Shown: positions 1,128 through 37,651 of the stretch, in pieces | Layout: every line of letters starts with the position of its first letter | Numbering within the stretch: the first letter of the stretch is position 1 | Virus genome (UHGV): UHGV-0200626 | Strand: one strand, 5' to 3' | Source of the DNA: a virus | Length of the DNA: 40,988 nt | Notes under the pieces: model-generated | The model's input: only the letters and a program-made list of their open reading frames with translations | What the model was told of the DNA's origin: nothing | The model's database searches: none | Translations under genes and position numbers: made by a program

Positions 1128-1313
1128 TTGTTTAATTTCTTCCCACTCCGCAACATCGCATTCAGATATTTGTTTTGATTCACTGATGGAAAAGAATTTC
1201 TCTTAAGCAATTCCTCTCTCGATGGCATTGGCTTTACGCGTTGGCGAATAATCATTTCTGCCGGAAGAATGCCTGGATTGTATGCAAGTCCTCTCATGGT
1301 AAATTCCTCTTTG

Positions 1314-1628
1314 TTAATTTATTCGTATGCCTGCTCTTTCTTCATCGAGTTTTTTTAGCTTGTATCGCATAGCTCTTACTGAATAAATTGAGCGGCAGGT
1401 TGCAATTGCTATTTCTTCTGCGGAGAACTTACCGAAAAGTGATACTTCGGCTCTTGTCCAGCGTCTTCCACGAAGTCGGCTAACAATGTCAGCGCCAATC
1501 CTTGTTGCTTTCGCCATTACTGCTTTTTCAGTCCCTTCCAGTTTTTCAGCGATAACTTCAACTGGCATTGTCGCCGCCACTTCGCGCAAGAAATCGACTT
1601 CCCATTTCTCCCATGGAGTCTTTTTCAT
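1314..1628 (-). CDS. Hypothetical phage protein
   Basis: 104 aa ORF co-oriented with the early-left operon, tightly packed between neighbours. Confidence 0.45.
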
Positions 1629-1639
1629 AGGCGATACCG

Positions 1640-2122
1640 TTATTTGATAAGAAGTGAAGGTTTCCCAACTTTGAGTTGAGCGCCGGGGATATTTATTCCT
1701 GCTTTTAGTTGGTGTTTGATTGCCAGTTTGTCGGCTTTAATTGTCGTTTCAAACTCAACGTATTCAGGAGGAAGGGCGCTTGAGTCGATGATTTCTACAG
1801 TTTCTGACGGTTTGCGGATTGTTACCTGGTGAATACCTGCTCTAATCTTTTTCTTGCCAACCATTTCAAGCGATGACGCTATATACGCCATAATGCTGCC
1901 AATCTTATTTTGAATTACTGCGGCTCGCTCATTCAGTGACTTTGCCTCTTCCTTGAGGCGTTCAGCATAACCAGATTCATTTTTAATAATGGCAAGAAGT
2001 TGCTCTATTTTATCGGTAAATTCTCCTTCCATGCCTTCTATTGTGTCAGCAATCATCTCTGGTTCTAAATCTGAATCCATCAATTTTGCGTATTCATTGG
2101 CAATTTCATACAGTTTGCTCAC
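1640..2122 (-). CDS. Gp157-like (Sipho_Gp157 family) protein
   Basis: About 160 aa acidic protein directly downstream of recT; likely GTG start at 2122 with GGAGG 6 nt upstream (the track's longer start at 2128 is TTG with no spacer). Family recalled from memory. Confidence 0.5.
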   Translation of the reverse strand: MSKLYEIANEYAKLMDSDLEPEMIADTIEGMEGEFTDKIEQLLAIIKNESGYAERLKEEAKSLNERAAVIQNKIGSIMAYIASSLEMVGKKKIRAGIHQVTIRKPSETVEIIDSSALPPEYVEFETTIKADKLAIKHQLKAGINIPGAQLKVGKPSLLIK

Positions 2123-3017
2123 TGGCAACCTCCAGTTTCGCTTTGCATTCTATGTAAATGGCTTGTACGTTCTGCTGCAATTTCATTCCAGATGTCAGGC
2201 GATATGCTTCTGCAAAATATCGCTTCAAATCATCCATGTTTTCTGCCTGAGCCATTTCATCGCAAAGAAGTTGTGCTTTATCCATTATTTCCTGCTGGCG
2301 TTTCCGTTCATCTTCGCGGATATCTTCCTCTGATTTGTGCGGCATAACTGGTTCGGTCCACACGCCTTCTTCTTCGTTTAGTACGTGAATAGCACTATCA
2401 AGGCGTGATGCCTTAGGCCAATACTTGCTTGCACGCTTTACGACCGTCTTTCGCGCCATCTCATTCCAGTGATTTACCCATGGTCCTTTATCGCTGAATG
2501 CTGCCTTGCTTGTTTTCCTTACAGCCTCAATTTCAGCCAGACTCATCTCTTCCGTTAGATAATCACCTGCTGGCGTCTTAACTGTGCAGTAAACGCCAAC
2601 GATATCACCACGGTCACCGAAGGCGTTGTATTTATGGGTTGGTGCTTTATCAAGCCCGTTTGACTCATAGGTATCGTTAGCATGAACAAGTTTTGCCTGA
2701 CCCCATGAGATAACACCAGACTCCATTGCAATATGGAGCAATCCCATATAGCTGATATCAAGGCACACCATGCCGTCGCGAGGAACCAGATAAGCCAGTT
2801 TGCTGGCCGGGTTTAAGGTGATGCCGATCGCCGCAACATTGATGATGGCGTTCTGTGCGCTGGTTGGATTTGCCAGTGCTGTTTTAGCCAGGTAATCGTT
2901 TTTCTGGAAATACTGAATTGCAAACTGGCTTTCCTTAGCCCATGTCACCGTCTGTTCAGTCAATGCTCCGCAGAATAACTGCTCCTGCTGTTTAACGAAT
3001 TTAACGATATTGCTCAT
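2106..3017 (-). CDS. recT: RecT-family single-strand annealing protein
   Basis: 303 aa; C-terminal block GPWVNHWNEMARKTVVKRASKYWP closely matches the conserved RecT motif (E. coli RecT GPWVTHWEEMAKKTAIRRLFKYLP). Confidence 0.8.
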   Translation of the reverse strand: MSNIVKFVKQQEQLFCGALTEQTVTWAKESQFAIQYFQKNDYLAKTALANPTSAQNAIINVAAIGITLNPASKLAYLVPRDGMVCLDISYMGLLHIAMESGVISWGQAKLVHANDTYESNGLDKAPTHKYNAFGDRGDIVGVYCTVKTPAGDYLTEEMSLAEIEAVRKTSKAAFSDKGPWVNHWNEMARKTVVKRASKYWPKASRLDSAIHVLNEEEGVWTEPVMPHKSEEDIREDERKRQQEIMDKAQLLCDEMAQAENMDDLKRYFAEAYRLTSGMKLQQNVQAIYIECKAKLEVASEQTV

Positions 3018-3325
3018 GCAGCTTCTCCAAAAATGTGTCTGCGTTTGAATATTGCGAAGGCATATTCAGCCTTAACTCTTTCGGTTATTGCATCCCAGAA
3101 CCATTCAGCGGCTTTTTCCTGATAGTTACAGTCATCATCTTCCAGCCAGTCGATAGCGTCCTTAGTGTGTTCATCTGGTTTATATGAGCGAAGCATTTCG
3201 CTTATTGGGTCGCAACGTTTGCAGAGGCGATCAACTTCACTGTTGATTCGTTCGTAATCTTCATCAGTAAAACTTGCGATTATTTGCGATATTTCACGCT
3301 TATCATTCAGAGTCAGAATCATCAT
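3014..3325 (-). CDS. Hypothetical phage protein
   Basis: 103 aa acidic ORF with ATGA overlap onto the recT start. It sits where an exonuclease partner would be expected but is too small to be one. Confidence 0.45.
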   Translation of the reverse strand: MMILTLNDKREISQIIASFTDEDYERINSEVDRLCKRCDPISEMLRSYKPDEHTKDAIDWLEDDDCNYQEKAAEWFWDAITERVKAEYAFAIFKRRHIFGEAA

Positions 3326-3543
3326 CTTTCTCCTGTTCTTTGTGCTGATTGAGCATTTCTTTCATCTGACGAATGAATTCTTCGTCTGACCAGTTATCTG
3401 TAAAACTCATTTCCTGCGATACCACGGAAGGTTGATAGCTGATTTCATCGCTTTATTTGCTTCAAGCCACATTTTTGAATCACCAATAAATCGGGCTATT
3501 ACTGCTTTGTTCTGTGCAGCACGAAGCATCTGGTGATTAATGG

Positions 3544-3678
3544 CTATTTCATTGCGCATAACGCCTCCAGTTGTTTCTTTGCTGCTCTGATTAATTGTTT
3601 AACTCGGCGTGATAATTCAGATTCGTGCGGGTAGAAAGCGGACATGACGCCGCTACCCGCGAGCTGAAAGTGCATCAT
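3544..3678 (-). CDS. cIII: cIII-like protein (putative FtsH inhibitor)
   Basis: 44 aa from ATGATG at 3678 with AAGGAG upstream: MMHFQLAGSGVMSAFYPHESELSRRVKQLIRAAKKQLEALCAMK; resembles lambda CIII (MQYAIAGWPVAGCPSESLLERITRKLRDGWKR). The track's 79 aa form is an upstream in-frame extension. Confidence 0.55.
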   Translation of the reverse strand: MMHFQLAGSGVMSAFYPHESELSRRVKQLIRAAKKQLEALCAMK

Positions 3679-3742
3679 GGGTAACTCCTTATATTTGATT
3701 GCATAACGAAAACGCCTCGAGTGAAGCGTTATTGGTATGCAT

Positions 3743-3768
3743 ATAAAAAAGCCCTCACACTGGAGGGC
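3743..3768 (-). terminator. Intrinsic terminator inside the leftward early operon (tL-like)
   Basis: Minus strand reads GCCCTC-cagtgt-GAGGGC followed by TTTTTTAT; lies between the kil-position ORF and cIII. Confidence 0.55.
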
Positions 3769-3863
3769 AAAGAAGATTTCCAATAATCAGAACAAGTCGG
3801 CTCCTGTTTAGTTACGAGCAACATTGCTCCGTGTATTCACTCGTTGGAATGAATACACAGTGC

Positions 3864-4052
3864 TTATTCGTCATGCATTTCAGGTAATTCTTCGTATTCG
3901 ACTCCCCATACGAGTTTACACCAAGTGACTCGCTCATATCTTTTACAAAAATCAGACCACATAACTTGTGTTCCATCATGGTTTGTTATTACTTCTGTAA
4001 TATCACCAACACTAACAAAACTGGTATTAGAAGCAGTTATTTTTACTTTCAT
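3864..4052 (-). CDS. Hypothetical small early protein (kil-equivalent position)
   Basis: 62 aa ORF; TAATG stop/start overlap with the upstream gene. Confidence 0.4.
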   Translation of the reverse strand: MKVKITASNTSFVSVGDITEVITNHDGTQVMWSDFCKRYERVTWCKLVWGVEYEELPEMHDE

Positions 4053-4339
4053 TACTTATCCCCAAGAGCTTTTCTGATTGCTGCGATACCTTTATTAACA
4101 GCTCCATACCATTCTGGATATGTTGTCGTTGTTCTATTTTTGGATTGCTTAAGTAATAACTGAAGTGCTTCGAGAAGGTCAGGTGCTGCCGCTATCAGTA
4201 GCGCATCCTCCCTTTCATTTCTTGTTGCTGCTTCAATGTATGTGTCACCAATCGTCACACCATGGAACGTAGTCATCATCTCGTTGACGTTTCTAACCGT
4301 GTACTTCCATTTACCAGGCGTACCCTTAAACTCTTTCAT
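4052..4339 (-). CDS. Hypothetical early protein
   Basis: ORF with ATG at 4339 and GAGG 5 nt upstream (the track's 4345 start is a GTG two codons further up). Confidence 0.45.
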   Translation of the reverse strand: MKEFKGTPGKWKYTVRNVNEMMTTFHGVTIGDTYIEAATRNEREDALLIAAAPDLLEALQLLLKQSKNRTTTTYPEWYGAVNKGIAAIRKALGDK

Positions 4340-4370
4340 ATCCACCTCTGTTGTTTATGCCAAAGCAAAT

Positions 4371-4613
4371 TTAACCATCAACAAACTCTTCTGGTAATTT
4401 ATCAACCAGTTGATGACTTATTATCAGCCATTTGCCATCCTTCGTTTCGTATGCATATTTCTGGTCTTTTATCATCATGTGTTCGGCTACTGCCCTAACT
4501 GCCTGATCGGTGACATCTTCTCTCTTTCCTACCCACATTCCTTTTTCAGTGTTTAATGTTCCTTGAAAAATACGACCACTTAATGGGCTTGCGCCCATAG
4601 TTTTTACTCTCAT
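4371..4613 (-). CDS. Hypothetical early protein
   Basis: 80 aa ORF co-oriented in the PL-like operon. Confidence 0.45.
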   Translation of the reverse strand: MRVKTMGASPLSGRIFQGTLNTEKGMWVGKREDVTDQAVRAVAEHMMIKDQKYAYETKDGKWLIISHQLVDKLPEEFVDG

Positions 4614-4676
4614 GTATCAGCTCTCAAATAAGTGGTTTGCTGCCAAAACAATGAACCATCCGGAAATTCAGATAGT

Positions 4677-4901
4677 TCATAATTCACTCTTCAATACTTC
4701 CAACTTACTAATCGCCGATAGATATCCGCGCTGATAGGGCATCATCATTCCTTCGAGCTTGCCACTTCTTAACTCCTTCCTGAGCAATTGTATTGCTTGA
4801 TCAATAACCTCTGCCTTAGCGTCCTTTATGGCTTGCTTGCGGGGCTTTGCTTTCTGCTTTGGCAGATTTCTCAAGCATGATGGAATGTATGTCTGATTCA
4901 T
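4677..4901 (-). CDS. Hypothetical basic protein, first gene of the leftward operon (N-equivalent position)
   Basis: ATG at 4901 with GAGGT upstream; Lys-rich N-terminus (PKQKAKPRKQAIKDAK). No arginine-rich motif recognised, so an N-like role is positional inference only. Confidence 0.4.
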   Translation of the reverse strand: MNQTYIPSCLRNLPKQKAKPRKQAIKDAKAEVIDQAIQLLRKELRSGKLEGMMMPYQRGYLSAISKLEVLKSEL

Positions 4902-5153
4902 CACTTACCTCGCTGTAACCTGCTTACTTGTACGATGACCAGCTGCGAAAAGCGCAACTTCTGGCAGGCAGACAGTACCACTCTTCAAATCAGCCTCCTT
5001 TTTCTTTTTCTATATCAAAAAGCTGCTTTGCTTTTGCGACTAAAAGCAAAAAAGCCTTCTCGCTAATGAGCAGCATTGCCGTTCATCCTGAACCCGCCGC
5101 ACTCCCGACGCATGGTTTAATGTCGCGCCGTTCGACATGGCTTAACTATATCC

Positions 5154-5180
5154 AAAGCTATTATTTCTGTAAATAGCTAT
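5154..5180. promoter_or_regulatory. OL-like operator palindrome
   Basis: AAAGCTATT-N9-AATAGCTAT, near-identical to the palindrome in the cI-cro intergenic region; sits upstream of the leftward operon and downstream of the cI terminator. Confidence 0.4.
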
Positions 5181-5269
5181 AGTTATAAAATAACTACTTT
5201 GGTTATTTAGTTGTTGATATCTAATATAATTTATTTTTCTTGAGTGTGATGTTTGGTGTGTTTTGGGCA

Positions 5270-5294
5270 ATAAAAAACCCGCAAAAAGCGGGTT
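5270..5294 (-). terminator. Intrinsic terminator downstream of cI
   Basis: AACCCGC-aaaaa-GCGGGTT hairpin with a T-run on the minus strand (plus-strand A-run at 5271..5277), about 20 bp beyond the cI stop. Confidence 0.6.
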
Positions 5295-5312
5295 TGTTGT
5301 GGTGTGATGAGG

Positions 5313-6044
5313 TTAGTAATCAACTACAGACCACCAGAAAATTCTTCCGATGATCTCAATGTCACTTAGATTCTTTTCTTCTTGTGGGTATTCCAGTGAG
5401 TTAAAGCTTCTAATGCTTACCTTGTCAGGCCCTGTTCGAAAGAGAATCTTAATGCGTTTCCAACCGTTCTCGTTAATGGCGTAAATCTTTCCGTCAACTA
5501 TTTTCTTATCGTTGGTGTTAACAGCAACTGTTGTTCCATCAGGAATGTTTGGCTCCATGCTGTTGCCACGAGCCGGAAAACAAACAACCCCGCTTCCATC
5601 ACTGTTCGCGCCAACTCTGCGAAGGGTTGATTTGGAAAAGCGCAACATAAAGCCGTTGTGATCTTCATCAATCACCCGACCATCCCCGCATGCAAACTCA
5701 ATATCTTTAAGGTAAGGAATTTCAACTTCATCACCTCTTAAAGGCGTTCCTCCATCCCATGGGTCCAAACATCCCCACGTGCTTTCATGAGGAATAGAAG
5801 ATTTTGGATCATAAGGTTCAACTCCCTCATCACGCATTGGCCCAGTTCCATCGGAAAGCCATTCCGTACGAACTCCAAGCACTTTTGATATTTCAAAAAG
5901 TTTGCGCGTATTGCGTGTTTTTCCAGACGTAAGTTTCCAGACGCTTGGCTGAGACATGCCAACAGCATTGCCAAGAGAAGCCTGAGTAAACCCAGCCTGA
6001 TCCATCGCGTATGTAAGCCTTTGAGAAAAAGTATCTAGTTTCAT
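5313..6044 (-). CDS. cI: CI-like repressor (N-terminal HTH, C-terminal S24 LexA-like peptidase domain)
   Basis: 243 aa; HTH-like segment (GFTQASLGNAVGMSQPSVWKL), C-terminal GNSMEP serine motif and a downstream Lys typical of S24 autopeptidases; divergent from a cro-like gene. Confidence 0.8.
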   Translation of the reverse strand: MKLDTFSQRLTYAMDQAGFTQASLGNAVGMSQPSVWKLTSGKTRNTRKLFEISKVLGVRTEWLSDGTGPMRDEGVEPYDPKSSIPHESTWGCLDPWDGGTPLRGDEVEIPYLKDIEFACGDGRVIDEDHNGFMLRFSKSTLRRVGANSDGSGVVCFPARGNSMEPNIPDGTTVAVNTNDKKIVDGKIYAINENGWKRIKILFRTGPDKVSIRSFNSLEYPQEEKNLSDIEIIGRIFWWSVVDY

Positions 6045-6055
6045 TCGGACAACCT

Positions 6056-6112
6056 ATAGCTACAGCTATTATTAGTCAAATATCTAAAGCTATTTACTTT
6101 CTGAATAGCTTT
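6056..6112. promoter_or_regulatory. OR-like operator region between cI and cro
   Basis: ATAGCT-AC-AGCTAT (6056..6069) and AAAGCTATT-N9-AATAGCTTT (6086..6112) inverted repeats in the 108 bp divergent intergenic region. Confidence 0.5.
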
Positions 6113-6152
6113 GGCTATTATTCTTGTTGTGAATTCAGCAGGAGTTATTTTT

Positions 6153-6383
6153 ATGGTCAACAAGGCTATTAAAGCGGCTATTGACTCAGTAGGAAGTCAG
6201 CAAAAGTTAGCTGATGCCTGCGGTGTTAAGCAGCCGTCTGTATGGGCTTGGTTGCATGGGAAGAAAAGGGTATCCGCTAAAAATGCCAAGCGCATTGAAA
6301 TGGCTACCAATGGAAGCATCCCTGCATACCTGATTCGCCCTGATTTATCCGATTTGTTCCCCAATCCGAACAAAGCAGCTTAA
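6153..6383 (+). CDS. cro: Cro-like HTH regulator
   Basis: 76 aa from ATG 6153 with AGGAG upstream; HTH-like segment QQKLADACGVKQPSVWAWLHGKK; divergent from cI. Confidence 0.6.
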   Translation: MVNKAIKAAIDSVGSQQKLADACGVKQPSVWAWLHGKKRVSAKNAKRIEMATNGSIPAYLIRPDLSDLFPNPNKAA

Positions 6384-6502
6384 TAAAGCAAATTTTTATA
6401 CCGAACGGCCCGGTATACGGTCGGGTGCCCGGCGTGGTCAAGGATGACTGTCAATGGTGCACGATAAAAACCCAAATTATTTACCTATGGAGATAGTAAG
6501 AA

Positions 6503-6799
6503 ATGACACAAACAAGTTACAGCAAGCCAACACAGCGAGAAATTGATCGCGCTGAAACTGATTTACTCATCAACCTGTCAACGCTTACCCAGCGCGGTTT
6601 GGCAAAGATGATTGGCTGTCATGAATCGAAGATAAGCAGAACGGACTGGAGATTTATTGCTTCGGTCTTGTGTGCTTTCGGAATGGCATCAGACATCAGT
6701 CCGATTAGCAGGGCTTTTAAGTATGCATTGGATGGAATCACAAAGAAAAAATCCCCGGCTGCCACCGAGGATTCTGAGCAAATTGATATGCAATTCTGA
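6503..6799 (+). CDS. cII: CII transcriptional activator
   Basis: 98 aa; C-terminus KKKSPAATEDSEQIDMQF matches lambda CII KKRPAATERSEQIQMEF; correct position after cro. Confidence 0.8.
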   Translation: MTQTSYSKPTQREIDRAETDLLINLSTLTQRGLAKMIGCHESKISRTDWRFIASVLCAFGMASDISPISRAFKYALDGITKKKSPAATEDSEQIDMQF

Positions 6800-9778: not shown

Positions 9779-9811
9779 CAGGCCTGCTGGTAATCGCAGG
9801 CCTTTTTATTT
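9779..9811 (+). terminator. Intrinsic terminator between replication module and nin region (tR2-like)
   Basis: AGGCCTGC-tggtaatc-GCAGGCCT perfect 8 bp stem followed by TTTTTATTT. Confidence 0.6.
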
Positions 9812-9839
9812 GGGGGAGAGTAATTGGAGGCTTTAAGAA

Positions 9840-11286: not shown

Positions 11287-11464
11287 CCCATCCCAATCTC
11301 TTCAATACCAGAAAGAAAGCGTCGAGCGGGCTTTAACGTGCGCTAATTGCGGTCAGAAGCTGCATGTGCTGGAAGTTCACGTGTGTGAGCGTTGTATATA
11401 TGAATGCTTAAATATGGTGGAACATAATGAGAAATATAAGCAACATAGACGAATTAAGAAATAA
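11279..11464 (+). pseudogene. ninF: ninF disrupted by an endonuclease gene insertion
   Basis: First 37 codons match lambda NinF (MLSPSQSLQYQKESVERALTCANCGQKLHVLEVHVCE); the frame then runs into unrelated sequence. The missing NinF C-terminus (CAELMSDPNSSMYEEEDDE) is encoded at 11935..11994 after the inserted gene. Confidence 0.6.
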
Positions 11465-11933
11465 ATTATCATATGATGATGTTTTAGGTGTACTTAGATG
11501 GAAAGTGTCTCCTTCTAATAATGTTAAGGTTGGCAGTGTTGCTGGTTACATTAGAAGTGATGGTTATAGGATGTTAACTATCGATGGTGTAATTACTTAT
11601 GCTCACCACGTTATATGGATGATAAATAATGGTGAGATTCCATTAGGGTATAAAATTGATCATATAAATGGATTAAGGTCAGATAATAGGCTGTCTAATC
11701 TTCGATTGGTTACACACCAACAGAATGCACAGAACCAAAAGAGAAAAATAACCAATTCGTCAGGAGTGACTGGAGTATATTTCAATAAAGAGAGATGTAA
11801 GTGGATTGCGAATATATGCGTAGATGGGCGCACCAAATATCTTGGAATATTTGCTAGCATCATTGACGCTATTGCAGAAAGGAAGAGGACAGAAAAAGAA
11901 CTGGGTTTTCATGAAAACCATGGCAGACCATAA
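11391..11933 (+). mobile_element. Free-standing homing endonuclease gene insertion within ninF
   Basis: About 543 bp lying between the two halves of ninF, almost entirely occupied by an HNH-AP2 ORF. Confidence 0.5.
11427..11933 (+). CDS. HNH endonuclease with AP2 DNA-binding domain
   Basis: 168 aa; HNH core YKIDHINGLRSDNRLSNLRLVTHQQN and AP2-like segment SGVTGVYFNKERCKWIANICVDGRTKYLGIF. Confidence 0.75.
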   Translation: MRNISNIDELRNKLSYDDVLGVLRWKVSPSNNVKVGSVAGYIRSDGYRMLTIDGVITYAHHVIWMINNGEIPLGYKIDHINGLRSDNRLSNLRLVTHQQNAQNQKRKITNSSGVTGVYFNKERCKWIANICVDGRTKYLGIFASIIDAIAERKRTEKELGFHENHGRP

Positions 11934-12841: not shown

Positions 12842-13026
12842 ACGCCACAATTCAAACGATACCAGAGCTTCTTATCCAGACACGAGGCAATCAGACCGAA
12901 GTGGCGATGATGCTTTCCTGCGCAAGAGGAACAGTGCTCAAGTACAACCGAGACAGTAAAGGCGAGCGTCACGTAATAGTTAACGGCGTCCTGATGGTCA
13001 AACAGGGAAAAAGGGGAAGGCCATGA
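12838..13026 (+). CDS. ninH: NinH
   Basis: TIPELLIQTRGNQTEVAMMLSCARGTVLKY...HVIVNGVLMV parallels lambda NinH (TIPDMLVEAYGNQTEVARRLKCSRGTVRKY...) from memory. Confidence 0.65.
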   Translation: MNATIQTIPELLIQTRGNQTEVAMMLSCARGTVLKYNRDSKGERHVIVNGVLMVKQGKRGRP

Positions 13027-13646
13027 GACTCGAAAGCGTAGCTAAATTTCATTCGCCAAAAAGCCCGATGATGAGCGACTCACCACGGGCCACGGCTTCT
13101 GACTCTCTTTCCGGTACTGATGTGATGGCTGCTATGGGGATGGCGCAATCACAAGCCGGATTCGGTATGGCTGCATTCTGCGGTAAGCACGAACTCAGCC
13201 AGAACGACAAACAAAAGGCTATCAACTATCTGATGCAATTTGCACACAAGGTATCGGGGAAATACCGTGGTGTGGCAAAGCTCGAAGGAAATACTAAGGC
13301 AAAGGTACTGCAAGTGCTCGCAACATTCGCTTATGCGGATTATTGCCGTAGTGCCGCGACGCCGGGGGCAAGATGCAGAGATTGCCACGGTACAGGCCGT
13401 GCGGTTGATATATCAAAAACAGAGCTGTGGGGGAGAGTTGTTGAGAAAGAATGCGGAAGATGCAAAGGTGTCGGCTATTCAAGAATGCCAGCAAGCGCCG
13501 CATATCGCGCTGTGACGATGCTAATACCCAACCTTACCCAACCAACCTGGTCACGCACTGTTAAGCCGCTGTATGACGCTCTGGTGGTGCAATGCCACAA
13601 GGAAGAGTCAATCGCAGACAACATTTTGAATGCGGTCACACGTTAG
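13023..13646 (+). CDS. Q: Late-gene antiterminator Q (lambda-type)
   Basis: 207 aa beginning MRLESVAKFHSPKSPMMSDSPRATASDSLSGTDVMAAMGMAQSQAGFGMAAFCGKHE, which to my recollection is essentially lambda Q; followed by a lambda-type PR'. Confidence 0.85.
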   Translation: MRLESVAKFHSPKSPMMSDSPRATASDSLSGTDVMAAMGMAQSQAGFGMAAFCGKHELSQNDKQKAINYLMQFAHKVSGKYRGVAKLEGNTKAKVLQVLATFAYADYCRSAATPGARCRDCHGTGRAVDISKTELWGRVVEKECGRCKGVGYSRMPASAAYRAVTMLIPNLTQPTWSRTVKPLYDALVVQCHKEESIADNILNAVTR

Positions 13647-37576: not shown

Positions 37577-37651
37577 TGGTGTCCCCTGCAGGAATCGAAC
37601 CTGCAATTAGCCCTTAGGAGGGGCTCGTTATATCCATTTAACTAAGAGGAC
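37577..37651 (-). tRNA. argW: tRNA-Arg (anticodon CCU), argW-like
   Basis: Reverse complement reads GTCCTCTTAGTTAAATGGATATAACGAGCCCCTCCTAAGGGCTAATTGCAGGTTCGATTCCTGCAGGGGACACCA (75 nt) with acceptor stem, CCT anticodon in a CTCCTAA loop, GGTTCGATTCC T-arm and CCA end. Confidence 0.95.

Follow-up and report, generated by a model that had tools for sequence, protein, structure and literature searches.

The question raised by this locus is how transcription of a leftward early operon reaches its distal genes. It lies in the viral genome UHGV-0200626, a stretch of 40,988 nucleotides (the window). Leftward transcription is assigned to the promoter pL (5145..5173, minus strand; TTTACA, 17-nt spacer, TATAGT), which is the best sigma-70 match in 12 kb (10/12) and is overlapped by the operator repeats oL (5148..5186), whose motif is shared with oR (6054..6118). 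Four minus-strand ORFs are found between pL and a hairpin at 3768..3745: a Lys-rich ORF of 74 aa (4901..4677) and three small early ORFs taken from the ORF list, assigned to DUF7446 by a profile match (4613..4371) and by PHROGs to phrog_1273 (4345..4052) and phrog_10407 (4052..3864). Beyond the hairpin, on the same strand, Pfam and PHROGs identify cIII (PF08134, 3681..3544), kil (PF06301, 3559..3407) and recT (PF03837, 3017..2106). The ORF layout and the Pfam assignments of cIII, kil and recT thus bear out the placing, in an earlier sequence-only reading, of a terminator between four leftward ORFs and cIII/recT. As this terminator lies inside the pL operon and upstream of cIII, kil and recT, the distal early genes need readthrough, cIII and kil being the first of them. 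The same reading considered the 74-aa product an atypical N candidate and the identity of the antiterminator unclear; the analysis below replaces this puzzle with a concrete, testable mechanism for the window.

The terminator itself was recovered by a consensus terminator scan as a minus-strand stem at 3768..3751, with arms GCCCTC and GAGGGC around CAGTGT (6 pairs, 5 of them G-C), followed by TTTTTTAT. Folded alone, the hairpin 3768..3745 reaches -11.1 kcal/mol (z = -3.4), a value equalled by 1 of 200 shuffles. The hairpin is conserved in HK97, HK75 and O276, whose records mark it as a terminator ('putative terminator' in HK97); the depositors of O276 name its counterpart tL2a. The clean minus-strand hairpin with a T-run described earlier holds in full. 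Because positions 3863..3745 are about 99% identical to the ral-ea10 spacer of lambda (NC_001416), with one substitution and 2 nt at the U-run as the differences over about 118 aligned nt, the hairpin is, by its sequence, the already known lambda terminator tL2a. Lambda and the window share the G+C hairpin, the U-run after it, the hairpins upstream and a position ahead of the cIII-kil block within the pL operon; however, tL2a lies between ral and ea10 in lambda but after an unrelated 62-aa ORF and directly before cIII in the window, where the GA between stem and U-run of lambda is missing. Unlike lambda, the window also has a second, tandem terminator-like hairpin behind tL2a, found by scan and fold just upstream of cIII (3705..3730, minus strand; AACGCTTCACTCGAGGCGTT followed by TTCGTT). 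Its stem-loop at 3730..3711 folds to -9.9 kcal/mol (z = -2.7), and its counterpart is annotated as a second terminator in the HK75 record; it does not appear in the sequence-only reading. Over 12 kb, the consensus scan listed 21 terminator-like sites in all, compared with 10.5 +/- 3.3 expected.

The hairpin has a second putative role. In lambda, tL2a forms the 3' end of LPR1/PreS, an Hfq-dependent sRNA reported to accumulate at about 88 and about 68 nt, to bind Hfq and to up-regulate dnaN (bioRxiv 10.1101/2024.10.31.621285). A homolog of about 88 nt is placed by homology to lambda at 3745..3832 (minus strand), its 5' end being set by the reported length alone, with a processed form of about 68 nt at roughly 3812..3745; the hairpin would thus double as the Hfq-type 3' module of this RNA. 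As for tL2a/LPR1, a G+C-rich hairpin with a poly-U 3' end is present within the pL operon, and the identity of the window spacer to lambda LPR1 is above the minimum of 92% applied in the preprint. Counted from the 3' end, the single substitution relative to lambda is at 76 nt and so falls beyond the processed form of about 68 nt. The region is strongly structured (z = -5.7), and a conserved 12-bp hairpin (3858..3831) stands just upstream of it. By analogy with the lambda experiments, a PreS-like sRNA is probably made from the window. Since tL2a is the 3' end of an sRNA, a sizeable fraction of transcripts must stop there even in N-proficient lambda.

An element that could carry polymerase past this terminator lies at the very start of the operon. 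The covariance model R1, built from known putL sequences, has only two matches in the window, and the stronger of them (101.9 bits, E about 1e-22) is a putL antiterminator RNA at 5065..5139 on the minus strand. It is 94.3% identical to the putL of HK022, HK75 and O276 in blastn (E = 2e-51 to HK022). Checked against PMC9378689, HK022 position n corresponds to 5140-n in the window, and pairing extends over 5137..5068; the pseudoknotted stem I consists of 3-7:15-19 and 10-14:30-34, and stem II comprises positions 36-72 with U68 bulged. The pL -10 hexamer occupies 5150..5145, and putL begins at 5139/5138, at the pL start as inferred from the promoter rather than mapped, its first two transcript positions differing from those of HK022. 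The -10-like AACCAT, at +23..+28 of the putL transcript (5112..5117, minus strand) and including the critical U28, was located by alignment and is identical in all aligned putL copies; it is absent from the putR of the window, as reported for HK022. In HK022 this element is proposed to cause a sigma70-dependent pause that aids put folding (PMC9378689). Just downstream of putL, a long A/U-rich hairpin ending in UUUUUG (5017..5060, minus strand; -17.4 kcal/mol, z = -2.55) is conserved in HK022, HK75, APC_JM3.2 and PDP110P2. The U-tract in its 5' arm (5053..5048) is the counterpart of the HK022 pause, which occurs 21 nt after stem II (PMC9378689). The hairpin has the form of a terminator and would presumably act as one.

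The rightward operon is arranged in the same manner. The promoter pR (6093..6121, plus strand; TTTACT, 17-nt spacer, TATTAT, from the sigma-70 scan) precedes cro (6135..6383, plus strand; PHROGs and Pfam), and the second match of R1 (46 bits, E about 1e-8) is putR at 6397..6465 on the plus strand, between cro and a cII-like gene. This putR is 99.1% identical to those of HK022 and O276 (blastn, E = 2e-48 to HK022), being the same as HK022 putR from position 3 on. The pR -10 hexamer ends at 6121, which puts position 3 of putR, at 6399, about 271 nt beyond the pR start, likewise inferred and not mapped; HK022 putR lies about 270 nt downstream of its pR start (PMC9378689). Farther along, a strong intrinsic terminator (9780..9813, plus strand; -15.7 kcal/mol, z = -2.9) separates the replication genes from the nin region and a Q-like gene (13023..13646), the latter assigned solely by position and our own reading.

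The sequence changes within putL speak for a maintained structure. Relative to HK022, A3-U19 has become U3-A19, A5-U17 has become U5-A17 and C39-G69 has become U39-G69; every pair is kept, the first two being compensatory swaps, and the 5' duplex of the window reads U3-A19, G4-C18, U5-A17, C6-G16 and G7-C15. Residues A8, A9, U21, C25, U28, U32, G35, G43-G47, A64 and U68 are unchanged. These are the residues found critical by mutation in the cryo-EM study of 2022 (PMC9378689), their alteration inactivating or reducing HK022 put; the 5' region (positions 3-7) of HK022 putL is also reported there as essential. A put-minus form of HK022 has AGAUC in place of G43-G47. Across 28 distinct sequences of the put family, 96.1% of cells are paired and 13 of 22 pairs are changed on both sides, including 9 of the 12 counted in stem II, although the counts are biased upward for stems I(b) and II, whose alignment had been fitted to the model. 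The covariation score was reached by none of 500 shuffles, and controls with slid partners fell to 26-52% paired. The pseudoknot helix 3-7:15-19, which is not part of the search model, covaries in 3 of its 5 pairs. An alignment of putL and putR by MAFFT (A1) put the length difference into the wrong stem, and a model-guided alignment (A5) was used instead. When putL, putR and the whole leader were folded as single sequences, the put fold did not emerge (z about 0), the 5' helix excepted. This is expected of an RNA that is pseudoknotted and protein-bound, so the structural support comes from covariation and homology. As the critical residues are kept and the changes are compensatory, comparison of the sequences indicates purifying selection on the put fold. 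The natural variants collected lend independent support, by covariation, to the 5' pseudoknot helix that the cryo-EM structure of 2022 first revealed.

The window very probably belongs to a P22-like mosaic lambdoid prophage with RNA-based early antitermination of the HK022 type, operating without a phage protein. Transcription from pL would start at about 5138, and its first 75 or so nt, putL, would fold into two stems in a V shape, the first of them pseudoknotted. Polymerase modified by putL should then pass the hairpin and U-tract just after putL, the hairpin behind the 74-aa gene (4651..4680, minus strand; a 12-bp stem followed by UGUUUUGG, -16.2 kcal/mol, z = -4.6), which may be weakly terminator-like or stabilising, and the tandem terminators 3768..3745 and 3730..3711, so as to reach cIII, kil, recT and beyond. 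Transcription from pR would be modified likewise by putR, passing for example the terminator at 9780 before the Q-like gene. According to the put model, readthrough would need a cis-acting phage RNA and no phage protein; that putL and putR act on the terminators of the window is what the experiments on HK022 lead us to infer. Polymerases that are unmodified, or that escape modification, would stop at the tL2a homolog, a stop which in lambda makes the 3' end of LPR1/PreS. The link between terminator and PreS means that the barrier to readthrough would also yield a regulatory RNA.

There are other ways in which the terminators might be dealt with, two of which call on a protein. The idea that the 74-aa ORF encodes an atypical N-like antiterminator acting at a nut site in the leader is suggested by its being the first sizeable ORF after pL and by a basic product (10 Lys and 5 Arg) of no known function. 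The ORF is real (4677..4901, minus strand; phrog_5305, 1.6e-37 in PHROGs), Lys-rich and free of an arginine-rich motif, as had been noted; strictly, it is not the first ORF after the left operator, being preceded by one of 27 codons. No match to Pfam, NCBIfam or the N family was found for it. Its AlphaFold2 model consists of two long helices (pLDDT 85.9), and the best match of a PDB fold search had E = 0.79, the matches being generic and non-significant; the protein is thus predicted to be a small folded helical hairpin. Homologs that are 92-100% identical directly follow a genuine arginine-rich N in at least five phages, namely mEpX2, mEp213, mEp506, ECP1 and JEP4, so the ORF coexists with N rather than replacing it, and virulent phages of Salmonella, Escherichia and Pseudomonas have more distant homologs. 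In HK225 a 49%-identical homolog is the first gene, preceded by a leader of 300 nt in which the covariance model detects no put. The transcribed strand of 4905..5150 and that of 6383..6503 gave no boxA match (CGCTCTTTAA, up to 2 mismatches), total matches being below chance, although with a single consensus and 2 mismatches a very divergent nut site would escape. By this search, the leader that had been singled out for nut elements (4905..5150) has no boxA/boxB nut site, but it does hold an antitermination element, putL, and is already taken. The 74-aa ORF is not N but a small early gene, unrelated to it, whose usual place is behind N, and there is hardly any chance that it acts as the antiterminator here.

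The 27-codon ORF (4905..4988, minus strand) is the other candidate. Alignment and translation show it to be chimeric: 3 codons from a gene like that of PDP110P2 are joined to the 24 final codons of an mEpX2-type N (4979..4905), and a Shine-Dalgarno sequence AAGGAGG (5000..4994) lies 5 nt before its TTG start. It matches PF25694 (N_peptide) at profile positions 76-100 of 100 only (36.6 bits), and tblastn with four N proteins and Nun returned only this C-terminal N fragment (4997..4908; N residues 58-87); NCBIfam gave nothing for the 27-aa peptide, mEpX2 N or the other remnants. The C-terminus of lambda N contacts RNA polymerase. A translated product could hence act as a nut-independent mini-N, to which the consensus ribosome-binding sequence, the occurrence of the same ORF in APC_JM3.2 and three E. 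coli genomes, and the motif CLPxVAL(F/Y)AAG(H/Y)RxSKQxTAR, the only part common to the otherwise unrelated N of HK97, JEP4 and mEpX2, lend some weight. Against this, the peptide has neither an arginine-rich motif nor a nut RNA for loading, and HK022 and HK75 function without the ORF. The N 3' remnants of other put prophages differ in length, one having an in-frame TAG and one being fused behind an HNH endonuclease, which is the pattern of a decaying scar and not of a conserved gene. The alignments identify the ORF as an N-gene remnant left by recombination. We consider it very unlikely that the ORF is translated and either serves as a mini-N on RNA polymerase beside put or, as a leader, couples its translation to that of the 74-aa gene, and a contribution as mini-N in itself is slightly less likely still. 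Akin to this, though less far-reaching, is the idea that the proportion of PreS sRNA to cIII/kil/recT expression may depend on how efficiently put works at tL2a. In E. coli PEC122 the same ORF carries the PGAP name 'transcriptional antitermination N peptide'; a likely mis-annotation is thus corrected on two counts, the 74-aa ORF not being N and the 'N peptide' being a fragment.

Two further explanations accept the put elements as present and deny them a function. Dedicated antitermination might be lacking altogether, the hairpin being mainly the leaky 3' end of PreS, passed by basal readthrough or bypassed by internal promoters, and put being baggage. This agrees with the role of lambda tL2a in defining the 3' end of an abundant sRNA and with a stem of merely 6 pairs. 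It is nevertheless improbable, as several terminator-like sites stand in series in both operons, both put sites keep all critical residues with compensatory changes elsewhere, and no good minus-strand promoter is found in 3700-3400, weak 9/12 matches at 3404 and 3306 being the sole hits; early gene expression in HK022, moreover, requires put (PMC9378689). Alternatively, the substitutions in the 5' helix and C39U might have inactivated the elements, since putL differs from the studied HK022 putL at 5 paired positions and positions 3-7 are essential. However, standard pairing is restored at every one of the five; the UGUCG/CGACA helix is also found in PDP110P2 and UPF_BP1 and, at 4 of 5 pairs, in phiEt88; putR naturally uses UACCG/CGGUA, and the putR of the window has the HK022 sequence from position 3 on. 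Loss of function by these substitutions is accordingly given very little credence, and RNA-based antitermination through putL and putR is the reading retained.

Both put antitermination and tL2a/PreS are known systems, of which the window is an unannotated ordinary example. Its put elements agree with those of HK022 (and of HK75, O276, HK639, phiEt88 and others) in sequence, in position relative to pL and pR and in the pseudoknotted two-stem fold; with HK022 it shares the critical residues, AACCAT and the U-tract pause site downstream, as well as the lack of N and nut. The properties of HK022-type put, namely terminator readthrough in cis, independence of phage proteins and dependence on the beta' zinc-binding domain, would by analogy extend to the window. 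HK022 is blocked by rpoC mutations in this domain, such as Y75N, which leave N-type systems unaffected. The immunity region (cI and operators) differs from that of HK022, and the virion genes are P22-like, not HK97-like. A Nun gene lies downstream of putL in HK022, HK75 and O276 but not in the window, where its place is taken by what is left of the 3' part of N, together with the block of small genes found behind N in mEpX2-type phages. The logic is the same as for N/nut of lambda (and for the P22/mEpX2-type N, PF25694), each early operon opening with an antitermination element that allows internal terminators to be passed. In contrast to lambda N/nut, the arginine-rich motif, the middle of N and nut are absent in the window, and the modifier would be a cis RNA binding polymerase directly. 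In N-using phages the downstream gene block and the last 24 N codons are homologous to those of the window. As the N-gene remnants show, put modules took the place of N and nut in phages of the N type; in the window the module would have replaced N and nutL and spared the last 24 N codons.

No Rfam family fell on the leader or on either put site, whether the whole window was searched at the gathering threshold or 3300..6600 at E <= 1. The Rfam matches seen were a tRNA and sub-threshold chance matches near the cI terminator. There is no Rfam family for put RNAs, and none is annotated in the RefSeq E. coli genomes checked. Further put RNAs have reportedly been described. A loose pattern scan of viral contigs yielded mostly chance matches, the covariance model confirming put in only about 17 of 120 loci. 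The RNAs are rare, about a dozen distinct phages carrying them among 50,697 phage records and 38 of 5,426 complete E. coli genomes having them. Because put is rare, outside Rfam and unannotated, lambdoid prophages that lack N can seem free of any antiterminator. Close counterparts of the window are APC_JM3.2 (MG197996) and prophages of E. coli PEC122, S56 and ET729, which have cI, pL, putL, N remnant and 74-aa gene arranged as in the window and share its recombination junction; put is annotated in none of the four records. The putR of APC_JM3.2 is 100% identical to that of the window, and its 5' helix is of the HK022 type (AGACG/CGUCU).

The left end of the window is a lambdoid early region whose leftward operon lies on the minus strand. 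The cI-like repressor gene (6044..5313, -), with Peptidase_S24 and HTH domains, is followed by a terminator at 5295..5275 (-), a hairpin with a U-run (AAACCCGC-TTTTT-GCGGGTTT plus TTTATT). This hairpin sits between the cI-like gene and oL/pL, and its Rfam search returned only sub-threshold chance matches (Yfr1, Trp_leader, isrK). pL (5173..5145, -), the top sigma-70 promoter match within 12 kb, is overlapped by operator repeats common to oR, and its leader of about 235 nt precedes four small ORFs (4901..4677, 4613..4371, 4345..4052 and 4052..3864, all -). These ORFs are upstream of the terminator hairpin at 3768..3745 (-); cIII (PF08134), kil (PF06301) and recT (PF03837), assigned by Pfam, are downstream of it on the same strand. 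In its first 25 kb the window is a P22-like mosaic, and no single phage record accounts for more than roughly half of that stretch.

The sequence-only reading had supposed that distal early genes require antitermination and had proposed a search of the pL leader for nut elements. Antitermination elements are present, but no boxA-like sequence was found on the transcribed strand of the pL or pR leader; both contain instead put RNAs, the HK022-type antiterminators that act in cis on RNA polymerase without a phage protein. A DNA search of the leader matched phage HK75 at a site annotated "putL site" by its depositors. The segment 5145..4990 (-) shares 94.3% identity with putL of HK022, HK75 and O276, and 96-98% with the unannotated phages APC_JM3.2 and PDP110P2, and the spacer that follows cro (6385..6505) matches putR of HK022 and O276 at 99.1% identity. 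A covariance model built from eight known putL sequences detected exactly two sites in the window, at 5139..5065 (-) with 101.9 bits and at 6397..6465 (+) with 46 bits; Rfam has no family matching either. The inferred pL start coincides with the start of putL, as in HK022, and the distance from the inferred pR start to putR is about 271 nt, compared with about 270 nt in HK022 (PMC9378689).

HK022 numbering was taken from the O276 annotation and verified against each numbered residue in Hwang et al. 2022 (PMC9378689), so that putL position n corresponds to window coordinate 5140-n. The putL of the window differs from that of HK022 at positions 3, 5, 17, 19 and 39. At pairs 3-19 and 5-17, A-U in HK022 is replaced by U-A; both belong to the 5' duplex 3-7:15-19, which was seen by cryo-EM and whose deletion inactivates put (PMC9378689). 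With the change at 39, the C-G pair 39-69 becomes U-G. Every residue at which mutation abolishes or lowers put activity (A8, A9, U21, C25, U28, U32, G35, G43-G47, A64 and U68) is as in HK022, and so are the -10-like AACCAT at +23..+28 and the U-tract of the HK022 polymerase pause, 21 nt past stem II. The window putR equals that of HK022 from position 3 on. Covariation was scored on the cryo-EM-based structure, pseudoknot included, over 31 put sites (28 distinct) from phage records and model-confirmed viral contigs. Standard pairs occupy 96.1% of cells against 78.5% in shuffles, covariation scores 0.147 in shuffles and 0.475 in the alignment, a value that none of 500 shuffles reached, and pairing falls to 26-52% when the 3' partners are slid by 1-3 columns. 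Both sides have changed at 13 of the 22 pairs; the pseudoknot helix covaries at three of its five pairs though it lies outside the search model, and the two remaining helices were aligned to that model, so their counts are inflated. Natural compensatory variants support the 5' helix observed by cryo-EM. This helix reads UGUCG/CGACA in the window (5139..5120) and AGACG/CGUCU in APC_JM3.2 (3053..3033), with a 1-nt length difference; the two phages otherwise have the immunity region and downstream junction in common, and a short patch brought in by recombination would fit the difference better than stepwise mutation.

The Lys-rich 74-aa ORF (4901..4677, -), previously put forward as an atypical N, is not a substitute for N but a small early gene travelling with the N region. 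Its family, phrog_5305, is without known function, and the protein matches nothing in Pfam or NCBIfam. Homologs with 92-100% identity occur in mEpX2, mEp213, mEp506, ECP1, JEP4 and other phages, and in all five named phages the homolog lies directly downstream of an annotated N gene; the translated N of three of them (mEpX2, JEP4, ECP1) begins MTVVITYLADDNARNRRRARRQAQREQ, a typical arginine-rich motif. Virulent phages of Salmonella, Escherichia and Pseudomonas have remoter homologs. The protein is modelled by AlphaFold2 as a folded helical hairpin (pLDDT 85.9), for which a PDB fold search gave nothing significant (best E = 0.79). In HK225 (NC_019717), a homolog with 49% identity (1176..1501) comes first after a promoter and about 300 nt of leader; no N is annotated there and the covariance model detects no put. 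The start of this leader and the sequence just upstream of putL in phage CobraSix both have GCTGAGCGAAGTTAGCCAGCGGCG.

Nun is absent from the window, and of N only a remnant is left. Searches by tblastn with N of mEpX2, JEP4, HK97 and lambda, and with HK75 Nun, gave only one significant match, to the last 22-30 residues of N, ending at 4908 and extending to 63 residues in a low-identity JEP4 alignment. The fragment belongs to a 27-codon ORF (4988..4905, -) with a Shine-Dalgarno AAGGAGG 5 nt ahead of its TTG start, which matches only positions 76-100 of the 100 in the N_peptide profile (PF25694). By alignment, the sequence is HK022-like to about 5009, then PDP110P2-like to about 4981, a stretch supplying the Shine-Dalgarno and first three codons of another gene, and from that point matches the 3' end of mEpX2 N exactly, so that the chimera joins three foreign codons to the last 24 of N. 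Its stop codon directly adjoins the start (GTG/ATG) of the 74-aa gene, and it could still provide translational coupling to that gene. APC_JM3.2 shares this junction, as do three of 5,426 complete E. coli genomes; for one of the three, PGAP (NCBI) calls the ORF "transcriptional antitermination N peptide". N remnants of other kinds occur in further put prophages. In Salmonella phage UPF_BP1 (2138..2831) and E. coli A357 (1640..2303), putL is followed directly by an HNH endonuclease gene and then by the rear part of N, fused to that gene or placed after it; in A357 this part of N contains an in-frame TAG. This suggests that insertion of an HNH homing endonuclease destroyed N in these two. The N remnants have the pattern of decaying scars, which shows that in N-type phages the front of N, along with nutL, gave way to put modules. 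The remnants keep a record of which module displaced which. In the nin region of the window, a 168-aa ORF (11427..11933, +), probably a homing endonuclease, ends in ...GFHENHGRP, resembling the C-terminus of the UPF_BP1 enzyme.

The hairpin between the small ORFs and cIII, reported in the sequence-only reading, is real: its stem (3768..3751) has six pairs, five of them G-C, followed by TTTTTT (-11.1 kcal/mol, z = -3.4), and a second terminator-like hairpin (3730..3711, -) lies in tandem behind it. The O276 record names the first tL2a, the HK97 record labels its equivalent "putative terminator", and both hairpins are marked terminators in HK75. The segment 3863..3745 (-) is about 99% identical to the lambda ral-ea10 spacer, with one substitution and, apart from it, GCTTTTTT in the window in place of GCGATTTTTT in lambda. 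According to a 2024 preprint (bioRxiv 10.1101/2024.10.31.621285), the Hfq-dependent sRNA LPR1/PreS ends at tL2a; it measures about 88 nt, with a processed form of about 68 nt, and is a lytic-cycle product that raises host dnaN and aids phage replication, and that many lambdoid phages keep at 92% identity or higher. Given this identity and the role of tL2a, the window has a PreS homolog, intact in sequence, at about 3832..3745. Its one substitution is 76 nt away from the PreS 3' end, beyond the 68-nt form, and 3870..3690 as a whole is strongly structured (z = -5.7). A perfect 12-bp hairpin (3831..3858, -; GUGUAUUCAUUC-CAAC-GAGUGAAUACAC), kept in lambda, HK97 and HK75, lies directly after the stop codon that ends the 62-aa ORF, a short way 5' of the PreS homolog, and may be a processing or stabilising element.

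Put RNA docks on the beta' zinc-binding domain of the polymerase that made it and holds the enzyme in a non-swiveled, pause-resistant state (PMC9378689). Extrapolating from HK022 and lambda, nascent putL would fold on emergence and bind this domain of the transcribing polymerase, which would then pass the hairpin and U-run just past putL (5060..5017, -17.4 kcal/mol), the weak hairpin at 4680..4651 and the tandem terminators 3768..3745 and 3730..3711 to reach cIII, kil and recT. Unmodified polymerases would halt at tL2a and yield the PreS 3' end, and the efficiency of put may in this way tune the balance between PreS and the distal genes. PutR would serve pR transcription likewise, where the modified polymerase would have to pass the strong terminator 9780..9803, ahead of the nin region and a Q-like gene (13023..13646).

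Both halves of the finding are known systems, the put RNAs of HK022 and tL2a with PreS of lambda, and this phage is an unannotated new carrier of them. Put is rare: of 50,697 phage records, only those of about a dozen distinct phages contain it, and of the 5,426 complete E. coli genomes 38 do, none of them with put annotated. This rarity, the absence of Nun, the N remnants and the compensatory variants in the 5' helix are points of modest interest. Complete E. coli genomes contain 41 putL-like sites, two of which are on plasmids (e.g. NZ_CP158430, 179 kb) that may be phage-plasmids or carry prophage fragments. Near the right end of the window is a single tRNA-Arg(CCT) gene (37577..37651, -), which may stand at the attachment site of the prophage, with host DNA beginning there, so that the window may be a prophage with its flank rather than a packaged genome; argW is a known integration site of P22-like phages.
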